Below are positions 1 through 4,992 of a stretch of 64,000 bases of DNA, in pieces; within the stretch, counting starts at the first letter, position 1; each line of letters starts with the position of its first letter. The notes beneath the pieces were generated by a model. That model worked only from the letters and a program-made list of their open reading frames with translations. It was not told where the DNA came from and did no database searches. A program made the translations under genes and the position numbers. The stretch spans positions 96,001 through 160,000 of the forward strand of contig JAZAMN010000008.1 in assembly GCA_036229005.1 (NCBI GenBank), given 5' to 3'. This stretch comes from Myxococcota bacterium. Its GTDB lineage: Bacteria > Myxococcota_A > UBA796 > CAJQPC01.

Positions 1-1062
1 GTCGGGGGGGAGGACCGCAAGCGAGGACAGGCCGGAGAGCGCCATGGCCTCGTCCAGCTCGTTGCGCAGCAGGCTGAGCACGTAGCCCACGCCAGCCGCA
101 CCGGCCCAGGCCAGGCCCCAGAGCACGGGGCGCCCGATCCAGACGGCCTCGGCGCCCAGGGCCAGGGCCTTGAGCACGTCGCTGCCGCGCCGGATCCCGC
201 CGTCCACGTGCAGGGTGAGGCTGTCGCCCACGGCCTGCTTGATCTCGTCCAGGGCCTGGGCGGTGGAGATGGCCCCGTCAAGCTGGCGGCCGCCGTGGTT
301 GGACACGACGACCCCCGCCACGCCGGCATCTCTGGCGATGCGCGCGTCCTGGGCGTGGAGAACGCCCTTGATCAGGATGGGCAGGTCGGTGACCGTCCGC
401 AGCCACTCCAGGTCCTGCCAGCCCAGGTTGGGCTCCAGCAGGCTGCCAAAGTAGGCGCCCAGGCCGGACTCGGCGGCCACCGGTGGCAGGGCCTCGCCCG
501 GGGTGCCCGTCAGGTTCGCGCAATGCAGGTGATCGGGCAGGTGGAATCCCCGGCGGATGTCGCCCTCCCTGGTGCCCAGGATGGGGGCGTCCACGGTGAG
601 CACCAGCGCGCTGCACCCCGCCGCCTGGGCGCGCTGGACCAGGGCCGCGGTCGCGCCCCGGTCCTTGTAGACGTAGAGCTGGAACCAGGTGGGCTGCTGG
701 CTCGCAGCGGCCACCTGCTCGACGGGCTGGTTGGAGAGGGTCGAGAGCACCATGGGCACCCCCGCCATCCCGCTGGCGCGGGCCGTGGCCAGCTCGCCGT
801 CGGCGTGGGCCATCCCCTGGAAGGCCATTGGGGCGACCACCAGCGGGCTGTCCTGCAGCCGCCCCAGCACCTTGCGGGCCACGCTGCGCTCCCCGACCTG
901 CGCCAGCATGCGGGGGCGCATGCGGATGCGCTGCCAAGCCCGGGGGGCGTCGTCCAGGGTGATGTGGTCCCGCGCGCCGTCGGCGTAGTAACCCCAGGCC
1001 ATGGGGGAGAGCTGCTGCTGGGCCAGCGCGCGGAGGTCGTGGAGGTTCAGGGGGGTGTCCAT
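1..1062 (-). CDS. FMN-dependent alpha-hydroxy acid oxidase/dehydrogenase (LldD/glycolate oxidase family), 3' end outside window
   Basis: Manual translation from ATG at 1062: MDTPLNLHDL...APMAFQGMAH...WFQLYVYKDR...LTVDAP...KGVL...VSNHGGRQLD...VDGGIRRGSDVLKALALGA, which are the family signature motifs. Confidence 0.95.
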   Translation of the reverse strand, partial: MDTPLNLHDLRALAQQQLSPMAWGYYADGARDHITLDDAPRAWQRIRMRPRMLAQVGERSVARKVLGRLQDSPLVVAPMAFQGMAHADGELATARASGMAGVPMVLSTLSNQPVEQVAAASQQPTWFQLYVYKDRGATAALVQRAQAAGCSALVLTVDAPILGTREGDIRRGFHLPDHLHCANLTGTPGEALPPVAAESGLGAYFGSLLEPNLGWQDLEWLRTVTDLPILIKGVLHAQDARIARDAGVAGVVVSNHGGRQLDGAISTAQALDEIKQAVGDSLTLHVDGGIRRGSDVLKALALGAEAVWIGRPVLWGLAWAGAAGVGYVLSLLRNELDEAMALSGLSSLAVLPPD

Positions 1063-1286
1063 CGGAGATCTATAGCGTTGTCCGGGGACTCTCGGGGGGC
1101 CGGGATTGGGTGTGTTGGAATGTGCTCAGGTGTATGGCTGGATGCACAGAGTTCTCAAAAGCTGATGGATGGCGGTTGCTTAGGGGTGTTGTACGGACTT
1201 TTCAGGGACCCTTTTGTACAGTACATGTGTGAGCTGTCTACCGAAGGTGTCATCCCAAGTGTCCGAAAACACGTTGGCTATAGAGT

Positions 1287-1302
1287 TGGCACGGGTCCTG
1301 CA
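1287..1302 (+). promoter_or_regulatory. sigma54 (RpoN) -24/-12 promoter
   Basis: TGGCACGGGTCCTGCA fits TGGCAC-N5-YTGCW with exact GG-N10-GC spacing; predicted TSS ~1313-1314 coincides with the start of the 5' strand of the long-range closing helix. Confidence 0.8.
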
Positions 1303-1313
1303 AACTACCCCTA

Positions 1314-2832
1314 TGACACCCGGCACAGTCCGGAGGTCAACCGAGAAAGACGCTCGGCACGTTCTTTGACGTTGACATCACTGATTGCAGATGGCCGCTG
1401 GGCCGGACTCCTGTCGGAGTCAGTCACTCGGGAGACCGGGAGACGGAAAGGAACCAGCGCCCTGGGATGCCTCTTCGGAGGGCCAGACCCAGGGGACCCA
1501 CCCAGCAAGACCAAGGCGACTTGGGCGAGCAGGGAGCGGGTCGGAGCACAGACGGAGCCTTCGGGCGACGAATGAGCCCCAGCCGGAGCGCACCGAGGTC
1601 CGCCTCGATGCCGCGAAAGGCGCGCTGCAGTCGGAAACAGAAGCCCATGGAAGAATCGAGCGGGCGCCCATCGGAAACGGTGGACGAACGCAACGGACTC
1701 TCTCAGCGGAGAAAAGCCTTGGAGTCGCGAGCAGGACAGCCCTCCGGCGGTCCAGCAGAAGCGCAGCCCTTCGGGGAGGCGCGGCAAGTCAGCCCACGTA
1801 CCTATGCGGAGGAACTGGCGAGAACGACAAGAAGGAAGCGCGGGTGCGGTGACGCATCAGCGGCTGCTGGAGAGGGAAAGTCTTTGAAGGGATCACGCTG
1901 TGGAAGCCAGCCGAAGGGGTCAAAGCGCGCAAGCGTCAAGACCAGGATGCTCTCAGAAGGAGCAGCCCAAGCGGAGGTGACGGGAACACAGCGAACCTCA
2001 TGACCGGTAGCAGGATGCAACAAGCCTGCAGCCCAGGTGCCCAGGCCGCCAGGGAGCTGAGAAAGCTCAAGGTGGCGCACGGCCGACCCGCTGGGGAAGG
2101 CACAAAGCATGGAAGAGCACGGCGAGCACAGCAATGTGCGCGGCGAGCGGTGACTGGAGACAGTCGCTGGGGTCAGGTAGGCGTCGAGGCCGACCAGACA
2201 CACGCCCAAGGCCATGTGGGAGCAAGCACCGCTCCGAGAAACCCGCTGGTGACAGCGAGGGTGGAACGGAGCTCGGGACACGACAAGGAAAGCCCCGGAG
2301 AGGGCGCTCAGAGCGGCGTTGGTGACAGCGCAGGCGGGGCGACCAGTAGGGACTGGAGCGGCGTGTCCGACGGAGATGTCGGTGGAGAGGCGGAAAAACC
2401 CTCGGGAGAAGGAGACGGCGAGCGGAAGCGACAGACCAAGCTCACAGGCAGGTCAGCAAACAGCACCTTGGTGTTGAGAGCGGGCAGGCTGCCGACTCAG
2501 GACGATTGGAAGAGTCTGAAAAGGCAGGCGCAGAAGGACAGAAGGACGCAGCAGACCAGAGGTTTCGGCCACTGGAACGCAGAGCGGACTGCGAGAGAAA
2601 CCTTGAAGGTCCCACCGATCCAGCATGTTGAACAGACATGGCGGTGAAGGCCAGGAAGGGACGCGGGAAAGAGCAACGACCCGCATCGCGGCCCAGGAAG
2701 GTCAACAGCAATGTTGAACGGCGACCTTGAGGTTCAGGCGAACCCCATATCAGGCGTACCGGCGCGCAAGCACCGGAGAGAGCCAAACGGTCCCGCATTC
2801 TCTGAAAGGAACCCTCCTTGGGCCGGGTGTCA
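1314..2832 (+). ncRNA. Candidate large (~1.5 kb) highly structured non-coding RNA, unknown class
   Basis: TGACACCCGGC (1314-1324) is the exact reverse complement of GCCGGGTGTCA (2822-2832); >20 hairpins, many with GNRA/UUCG loops; purine-rich + strand; no credible ORF; sigma54 promoter upstream and terminator downstream. Confidence 0.8.
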
Positions 2833-2879
2833 CCCTCCACCCCACTGGGACGGAGGGAGAAGGCAGACCTTGCCTTCAA

Positions 2880-2925
2880 CAACAAAGCCCCGAACCACCT
2901 TGGTGGTTCGGGGCTTTGTTGCGTT
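2880..2925. terminator. Intrinsic terminator, probably bidirectional (ncRNA on +, uvrB on -)
   Basis: Perfect 19-bp inverted repeat CAACAAAGCCCCGAACCAC-CTTG-GTGGTTCGGGGCTTTGTTG, giving a T-rich tail on either strand. Confidence 0.85.
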
Positions 2926-2976
2926 TGGGACTCAGGATCAAGGATCCAGAGCGCTCCTTGAGTCCTTCCCCGCGAC

Positions 2977-4992
<2,016 letters not shown>

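Follow-up and report, generated by a model that had tools for sequence, protein, structure and literature searches.

The stretch of DNA analyzed here (the window, 64,000 nucleotides (nt) long; contig JAZAMN010000008.1, positions 96,001-160,000 of the forward strand, assembly GCA_036229005.1) comes from a Myxococcota bacterium whose genome (G000) is 94% complete, and it contains a stand-alone gene for a structured RNA of about 1,520 nt (1314..2832, + strand) with a base-paired core that is conserved across two phyla. The extent of the RNA was determined through covariation, folding z (-3.4 and -2.2 for its two halves, 20 shuffles each) and contigs assembled from RNA runs, which reach from 1326 or 1350 to 2824. 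We consider it almost certain that this is a real, expressed and structured RNA class, and the family to which it belongs is apparently an undescribed class of rRNA-sized, repeat-built bacterial RNA. An earlier note on the same DNA, made from the sequence, had proposed a stand-alone structured RNA of an unrecognised class. That interpretation is supported, and each test run to refute it came out in its favour; the analysis adds a boxA-like element, a repeated unit with a 3x3 loop, a kissing loop, T-loop-like loops, a paralogue and a family spanning two phyla.

The element is non-coding, as the note had proposed: homologues conserve base pairs, no reading frame is kept, and only 4 of the 55 indels between the window RNA and its paralogue (73% identical by blastn; G000:C24:183751-185349, equal to L031:4752-6350) are multiples of three, as are 61 of 424 in nine homologue pairs. 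Covariation, the proposed check of the fold, was calculated as mutual information (MI) with average product correction (APC) and sequence weighting on alignments of 103 and 117 sequences, and covarying pairs were found across the homologues. Among the 60 top pairs from the 103 sequences (53% mean core identity), 37 are canonical and arranged in ladders. In the central domain 99.7% of cells are paired and 9 of 14 pairs are compensatory, a result as high as which was reached in 0 of 500 shuffles; an unaided RNAalifold run on a broader set of 50 sequences returned the same 14 pairs, 12 of them compensatory. About 70 positions are near-invariant, including unpaired AA steps and loop purines.

The paired ends and the richness in tetraloop hairpins on which the note had been built were both borne out. 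All 18 stretches that it quoted are present where it placed them, and the segments 1314-1324 and 2822-2832 are perfect reverse complements of each other. On the + strand there are 11 GNRA/UNCG hairpins whose stems have at least 5 base pairs (bp), and on the - strand 0, compared with 0.5 +/- 0.7 in 500 dinucleotide shuffles, none of which reached 11. This count is the joint highest among 25,290 genome windows of 1.5 kilobases (kb; mean 0.56), and another genome window, with 10 hairpins, is a coding repeat rich in Gly/Arg. Other windows of the genome with many hairpins were rejected as further RNAs (two coding repeats, one palindromic repeat array). The + strand is purine-rich (62% purine, 11% U), again as described. 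The individual hairpins fared unevenly: those at 1511, 1668, 1843, 2148, 2244, 2316 and 2702 are kept in the paralogue, six of the seven with compensatory changes, whereas those at 1427-1440, 1767-1776 and 2561-2570 are not. The hairpin proposed at 2367-2382 competes with the covarying long-range helix 2003-2006/2380-2383 (z 13-21) and is probably not part of the folded state.

The core is built from a repeated unit of two 4-5-bp helices around a purine-rich 3x3 loop, about one helical turn in length, with R-N-G opposite G-N-R and with outer loop pairs (A.A or G.G) that switch together. The unit is usually preceded by AA and occurs in up to nine copies per RNA; a blind search recovered 5.5 strict units per RNA versus 0.2 in shuffles (36 RNAs under 2 kb). 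The first loop pair is A.A or G.G, respectively, in 41 and 47 of 101 sequences for unit M2, in 50 and 63 of 117 for M4, and in 43 and 31 of 98 for M8, while M6 and M7 were assigned by covariation and window pairing and no loop-pair counts were used for them. Domains 1 and 2 have one order of elements in consensus, with the patterns present in 23 and 16 of 41 RNAs, which suggests that the two arose by internal duplication. As a separate observation, G491, a genome with three loci, also gives two weaker internal hits of the central-domain model, which agrees with domain duplication.

The overall core comprises three nested domains and a variable 5′ domain, and all of the following features lie on the + strand. 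The molecule is closed by helix P1, whose 5′ strand (1314..1324) pairs with 2822-2832 and is extended by 1332-1336/2813-2817. Across 41 RNAs, the P1 duplex has an energy of -21.6 kcal/mol with a member's own ends and -12.1 with the ends of other members, and the own partner is best in 22 of the 41; the gap is overstated and partly circular, because the 3′ ends were chosen partly by the same pairing. The variable 5′ domain of tetraloop-capped arms (1376..1636), in which unit M0 is degenerate in the window copy, was delineated by covariation, folding and comparison with the paralogue. Domain 1 (1644..1891; z as high as 20 for covariation, with its pairing verified in the window) consists of M1 (1644-1654/1881-1891), a GNRA hairpin (1668-1683), M2 (1717-1727/1825-1835) and a GUGA hairpin (1843-1858), and the unaided fold recovers the same helices. 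It is followed by a variable arm (1896..1993) closed by helix 1896-1901/1988-1993 (z 10-14).

Domain 2 (1996..2390, by covariation) is closed by M3 (1996-2006/2380-2390), which encloses two T-loop-like hairpins, a kissing hairpin and lineage-specific arms. T-loop-like hairpin 1 (2010..2029) is closed by an A.G/G.A pair at 2015/2024 (covarying, MI 1.0), and its loop has U.A at positions 1 and 5; several distant members (L266, L269, L298, L300, L314) have unrelated loops in its place. Unit M4 (2045..2076), one strand of which is shortened in the window copy, is capped by a T-loop-like loop (2058-2064) in which positions 1 and 5 covary as U.A/G.G (z 20.6), and its helices are 99-100% paired. The close family thus has the two pentaloops with a non-canonical 1-5 pair (typically U.A) that characterize the interdigitated T-loop motif, the signatures being those defined in PMC4810234; covariation between the two loops gave nothing separable from clade structure or phylogeny. 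The kissing loop (2089..2094) pairs 2090-2092 with 2672-2674 and so joins domains 2 and 3 across about 580 nt, with compensatory sets of loop and partner in the family (helix z 12) and two compensatory changes between the window copy and the paralogue. Other cross-half covariation was unconvincing, its top pairs falling in poorly aligned columns. Domain 3 (2400..2809, by covariation) is made of nested units M5 (2400-2410/2798-2809, deviant here), M6 (2516-2524/2745-2753), M7 (2536-2545/2725-2735, 2x3 here) and M8 (2601-2611/2649-2659) together with the hairpin 2663-2684 that carries the kissing partner. Length variation between members lies in the arms between core helices. Domain 3 itself can shrink, as in L056 and L060, which have a short 3′ part of ~345-375 nt after the central anchor.

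Transcription of the gene would start from a sigma54 (-24/-12) promoter at 1287..1302 (+), read from the sequence, and the same element lies 5′ of the RNA in 44 of the 53 loci that remained after duplicate removal. The other nine are four truncated loci, three chance hits, one locus starting inside the RNA and one real member that lacks the promoter. No sigma70 site was found within window positions 1000-3100. In this order, control by sigma54 is thus as the earlier note had proposed; among the more distant members, several have sigma70-like promoters and others sigma54. Of 40 promoters of this order, 36 have a family palindrome of 18 bp near -87 and -200. Among 30 loci read in a search across the class, 13 combine palindrome and promoter at the fixed spacing, and every one of these 13 leads into the family RNA; a scan of G000 with the enhancer matrix found no sigma54 promoter adjoining any of the top 30 sites. 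The palindrome scores below threshold in the window copy and its paralogue, which, judging from their sequences, appear to have lost it; an imperfect 18-bp palindrome at 1131..1148 (+) is a low-confidence candidate for an upstream activator site. An IHF-like site occurs in 12 of 41 promoters versus 2% of random stretches, which is suggestive only. Elsewhere in the genome, two genes for FliA/WhiG-like sigma factors (G000:C11:60843 and, on the minus strand, G000:C29) also have sigma54 promoters and AT-rich IHF-like sites. DnaA-box-like words occur at fixed positions near -64, -100 and -155 upstream of 14 loci (L032, L033, L035-L037, L055, L056, L068, L072, L077, L082, L083, L229, L243).

Downstream of the start site, a helix (1337-1341/1371-1375) within 1337..1375 (+) encloses a 5′ hairpin (1341-1357) followed by an unpaired boxA-like element (1361-1370). 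Of 41 genomic copies, 39 have the motif, at a distance of 44-99 nt downstream of +1. In the host, which has NusB, the two rRNA leaders that were assembled contain GGTCTTTGAAAAA, which matches the element. The element also fits the B. subtilis and E. coli boxA consensus as given in PMC13753749. The sequence features expected of a boxA thus appear to be present (a boxA-like, single-stranded motif after a 5′ hairpin, with NusB in the host), and we infer that antitermination may take place there. At the other end, the earlier note is corrected in that the RNA proper ends at ~2832 and is followed by a trailer (2833..2921, +) with a 19-bp terminator-like hairpin (2880-2921), identified by sequence and window pairing; such a hairpin follows P1 in homologues too. 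In one locus (L033:5150-5740) several short tandem-repeat arrays lie immediately past the terminator.

Expression was assessed in environmental RNA data. Twelve runs contain at least half of the sequence words of the window RNA, and the RNA-run contigs from three studies (P2, P3, P4) are confined to 1326-2824, with none on 1-1200 or 2850-3200; runs X14-X18, which have small word shares, lay outside the contig comparison. The paralogue is also represented. The predicted transcript is therefore covered over the element and not over its flanks, although the contigs carry no information on strand or exact ends. Contig depth in run X7 is 1,479-3,498 on the RNA and 40-82 on host-like fusA pieces, and was not used to rank expression. 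In the Joint Genome Institute (JGI) collection, a scan of 4 of 64 parts gave 121 loci, from which about 2,400 stretches are estimated. Of 80 JGI contigs taken whole (1,022-2,709 nt), 61 carry the boxA-like motif and 59 of these begin at most 70 nt from it; 62 carry the 3′ motif, with 56 ending within 80 nt of it; and the promoter is present in just one. These contigs would come from RNA libraries; had they been collapsed repeats in DNA, they would be expected to contain the conserved promoter. No terminal repeats indicative of a circular RNA were found in the 80 contigs.

The family is widespread in the class and reaches a second phylum. Matches by blastn were found in 17 of 61 genomes, and a search of 185,579 genomes with an exact pattern for the best conserved stretch returned 49 loci, among them loci from Myxococcota / Deltaproteobacteria; pattern hits L074, L088 and L089 were rejected as chance (16-23 bits). 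The complete copies (n=41, after three truncated loci were dropped and five 3′ ends were set by hand) are 1,094-3,296 nt long, with a median of 1,476. Covariance models built on the 111-nt central domain matched 67 of 121 genomes of the class, and phylum-level searches covered the host's own phylum, Planctomycetota and a Pseudomonadota sample. They gave 36 of 151 genomes in the phylum, at most 34 when two coding false hits (G082, G072) are set aside, and 16 of 101 in Planctomycetota, where seven loci were read and all have the same order of elements. The Pseudomonadota sample gave only weak hits, in 3 of 151 genomes, all of them in coding sequence. A genome holds up to six matches, and the counts are low estimates, since in four model-negative genomes a contig end carries the promoter and the 5′ end of the RNA. 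Copies in tandem, spaced by 1.6-3.6 kb, were seen at L058/L059, at G502:C1:2186435 and 2188340, at G514:C416 and at G491:C1, and in the copy L265 (G103:C87) the central domain is interrupted at a short direct repeat. No match was found by blastn in 50,697 phage or 72,556 plasmid records, and a second viral pattern gave 0. One viral-collection contig (L099:1-4435, IMG/VR) joins a whole family RNA to unrelated sequence that we take to resemble an RNA-virus replicase gene, and is likely a chimeric assembly. Unrelated tails are also carried by L100, L118, L142 and L158.

Comparison with known RNAs returned no identity. As the note had expected, there was no Rfam match at cut-off for the window locus or related loci: the window locus at E ≤ 10 and 24 homologous loci (12 at cut-off, 12 at E ≤ 0.05) gave only terminator-type hairpin matches, nothing near cut-off being seen at the window locus. 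The best score was for the Myxococcus Pxr small RNA (23 bits against an 80-bit cut-off), covering only the 3′ end and terminator. With the missing signatures, this excludes GOLLD, ROOL, OLE, RNase P and introns as identities; for group I/II introns, there is in addition no splice joint or exon in the contigs, and the gene has its own promoter and terminator. GOLLD and ROOL are nevertheless similar in kind, being large, stand-alone, ornate and abundant bacterial RNAs of unassigned role with kissing loops and variable domains. They form RNA-only cages (PMC12286853, PMC12990946) that use A-minor contacts and kissing loops (PMC12286853). They reside in phages or prophages, often near tRNA islands, whereas the family RNA is chromosomal, without a phage match, occurs in other phyla, is 1.1-3.3 kb rather than 550-833 nt long, has no Rfam match, and adds the repeated 3x3-loop unit, the boxA-like element and the sigma54 enhancer.

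OLE is likewise a large chromosomal structured RNA and is linked to oapA; at 577 nt it is two to five times shorter than the family RNA, which has no Rfam match and no conserved adjacent partner gene. Like the rRNA operon, the family gene has paired leader and trailer ends, a boxA-like element that follows a 5′ hairpin, expansion segments, several copies in a genome and a tendency for assemblies to break at it; the family RNA differs in having no rRNA homology and, in this order, a sigma54 promoter. Two T-loop-like loops close together recall the RNase P specificity domain, T-box stem I and the L1 stalk, and loop 1 resembles a conserved region of the host's own RNase P; unlike RNase P, the family has no catalytic-domain signature, and loop 1 is not universal. 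Among 117 sequences, motif searches found RNase P conserved regions I and V (P4) and the group I signature in 0, and the domain-5 pattern of group II introns in no more than 2. The class-R2/IC3 GNRA receptors, too, have a CCC/GGG helix beside a purine-rich internal loop, and the family RNA is rich in GNRA loops; its loop is a symmetric 3x3, however, CCC/GGG occurs in some units only, and no loop-receptor covariation was seen. CsrB/RsmZ likewise carry repeated motifs, but their GGA motifs sit in hairpin loops and those of the family RNA are base-paired, and the host has no CsrA match.

We tentatively read the RNA as a self-packing modular scaffold, cage or homo-oligomeric particle, which it may well be, although we would stop short of calling this probable from the sequence. 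A sigma54 activator with its own enhancer would switch the gene on, and the boxA-like element would load the Nus antitermination complex in the manner of rRNA operons, allowing an untranslated RNA of 1-3 kb to be completed. P1 would then close the RNA and the one-turn units would brace it, while AA steps, GNRA loops and T-loop-like loops might dock, through contacts of the A-minor type, into the C-G pairs next to the repeated loops, inside one molecule and perhaps also from one molecule to another. The kissing loop may also contribute to packing, by analogy with the A-minor and kissing contacts of GOLLD and ROOL. Such a particle would act as an abundant, non-essential scaffold or store.

Several points weigh against a self-packing particle. 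The repeated purine-rich loops equally resemble a protein-binding array, and the threefold variation in length makes a poor fit to a cage of fixed symmetry. The kissing loop is the only tertiary contact, within or between molecules, that the data support; a covariation comparison of the two conserved GNRA loops with all helices did not exceed about z 6 and showed no loop-receptor pattern, and the published class-R2/IC3 tetraloop receptors have an asymmetric loop after CCC/GGG (PMC2275092; also PMC11571812). Units M0, M4, M5 and M7 are deviant in the window copy. The alignments were made automatically from an exact-pattern seed on T-loop stem 1, so that conservation is biased at that place, and APC and weighting were the only corrections of covariation for phylogeny. 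The RNA data are assembled contigs that give no strand or level, and the JGI library type is not stated.

A multivalent ribonucleoprotein or protein sponge, in which the repeated loops would bind many copies of one protein and sequester or array it, is a serious but rather unlikely alternative. The human immunodeficiency virus Rev response element and CsrB array their ligands in this manner. Such a role would be in keeping with the presence of as many as nine similar loops whose A.A/G.G swaps look isosteric, with the up to six matches in one genome, with the restriction of the enhancer-plus-promoter design to the family RNA (13 of 13 fixed-spacing cases) and with an ANGGA count of 21 versus 12.9 in shuffles. 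On the other hand, neither CsrA (PF02599) nor a TROVE/Ro60 protein was found in the host genome, the loci have no neighbouring gene in common, the GGA-like strands are base-paired rather than displayed in loops, and a sponge would not need the conserved kissing loop and fixed nesting. We regard it as distinctly unlikely that the RNA binds tRNAs or ribosomes, with the interdigitated T-loop-like loops serving as a tRNA-elbow platform (as in RNase P, T-boxes and the L1 stalk) and the RNA storing or protecting tRNAs or idle ribosomes. The adjacent loops do carry T-loop signatures (U.A in loop 1, U.A/G.G covariation in loop 2), and loop 1 has its RNase P resemblance; yet loop 1 is replaced in the five distant members listed above, the two loops show no covariation distinguishable from clade structure, and a tRNA gene lies near the RNA in just 1 of 55 loci.

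A large trans-acting ribozyme of a new kind, with a catalytic invariant core and arms corresponding to the expansion segments of RNase P and group I/II introns, seems improbable. The near-invariant positions, the long-range pseudoknot and a size and complexity within the range of large ribozymes would agree with it. Conservation is spread over the repeated units and not focused, however; the exons, splice joints, Rfam matches and signatures of introns and RNase P are missing as described above, apart from the two domain-5 patterns; and the host has an ordinary RNase P at a separate locus (227 bits), as well as tmRNA. Least credible, and very improbable, is a selfish or mobile RNA element spreading by copying. 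Several copies stand at unrelated places in a genome, distribution is patchy across the two phyla, and the window copy is not at the site common to its relatives. Against this, a Pfam scan of 60 flanking proteins (taken from 83 picked plus the window's two) revealed no reverse transcriptase and no endonuclease or other nuclease, and one IS66 transposase; the same 2-oxoacid dehydrogenase-type gene flanks 9 loci; phage and plasmid records gave no match; enhancer and boxA are of host type; and the 80 contigs have no circular terminal repeats. In broader terms, the family could be a third kind of rRNA-sized bacterial RNA machine in Myxococcota and Planctomycetota, multi-copy, transcribed like an rRNA operon, built by repeating a one-turn strut and assembling, either alone or together with a repeated protein partner, into a particle of ribosome scale that has an activity of its own (in storage, as a compartment or in catalysis), a proposal that we hold to be quite possible and somewhat short of likely.

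No prior description of the family was found in the full-text literature, where supplementary motif tables could list a fragment and subscription journals fall mostly outside the scope; a description somewhere outside that literature is unlikely. The main text of PMC11109978 has no mention of myxobacteria or boxA. In the reviews consulted, and leaving aside the ribosome and self-splicing introns, the largest structured RNAs of bacteria measure 550-833 nt (PMC12990946), and the large RNA assemblies tabulated there span 255-833 nt. The family is up to four times longer than the RNAs of 550-833 nt, chromosomal in two phyla, and common in environmental sequence collections yet absent from Rfam 15. 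A single loop unit repeated up to nine times is a design found in no paper searched; it offers a natural test of how duplicated domains contribute to the evolution of large RNAs, and gives RNA structure work a new building block. The boxA-like element on a non-ribosomal RNA gene of this size, together with an enhancer seen only there, provides handles on regulation. The family also accounts for a class of unannotated 1-3-kb contigs and for at least one chimeric-looking entry in a viral collection.

The RNA gene sits between two genes that are neighbours and lie outside the RNA element. Upstream and divergent is a gene for a flavin mononucleotide (FMN)-dependent alpha-hydroxy-acid oxidase (1..1041, - strand, running off the window; Pfam FMN_dh, E 6e-128), which is not common to other family loci; downstream and convergent is uvrB (2977..4992, - strand; Pfam UvrB domains). 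The paralogue occupies the site common to same-genus relatives, beside the 2-oxoacid dehydrogenase-type gene, and the window copy is the extra one. A comparison of neighbours at 41 loci found no flanking gene common to the family, the largest cluster being the 2-oxoacid dehydrogenase type at 9 loci and the next Rho at 5. In one lineage rho is divergent from the RNA gene (L055, L068, L077, L078, L097, L226); Rho is the terminator opposed by boxA antitermination. A phosphotransferase system EIIA-type gene lies 3′ of the RNA on the same strand in the Planctomycetota loci L281 (confirmed by Pfam), L313 and L314 (both assigned by eye). Elsewhere in the host genome, a palindromic repeat array with ~100-nt repeats (G000:C43:28150-28850) follows a gene ending in an apparent Fis-type helix-turn-helix, and an open reading frame on the minus strand of G000:C4 (~149,900-150,900, counted on that strand), read by eye, resembles an RNA recognition motif protein with a very long Gly/Arg/Tyr repeat tail and may encode an RNA-binding protein.

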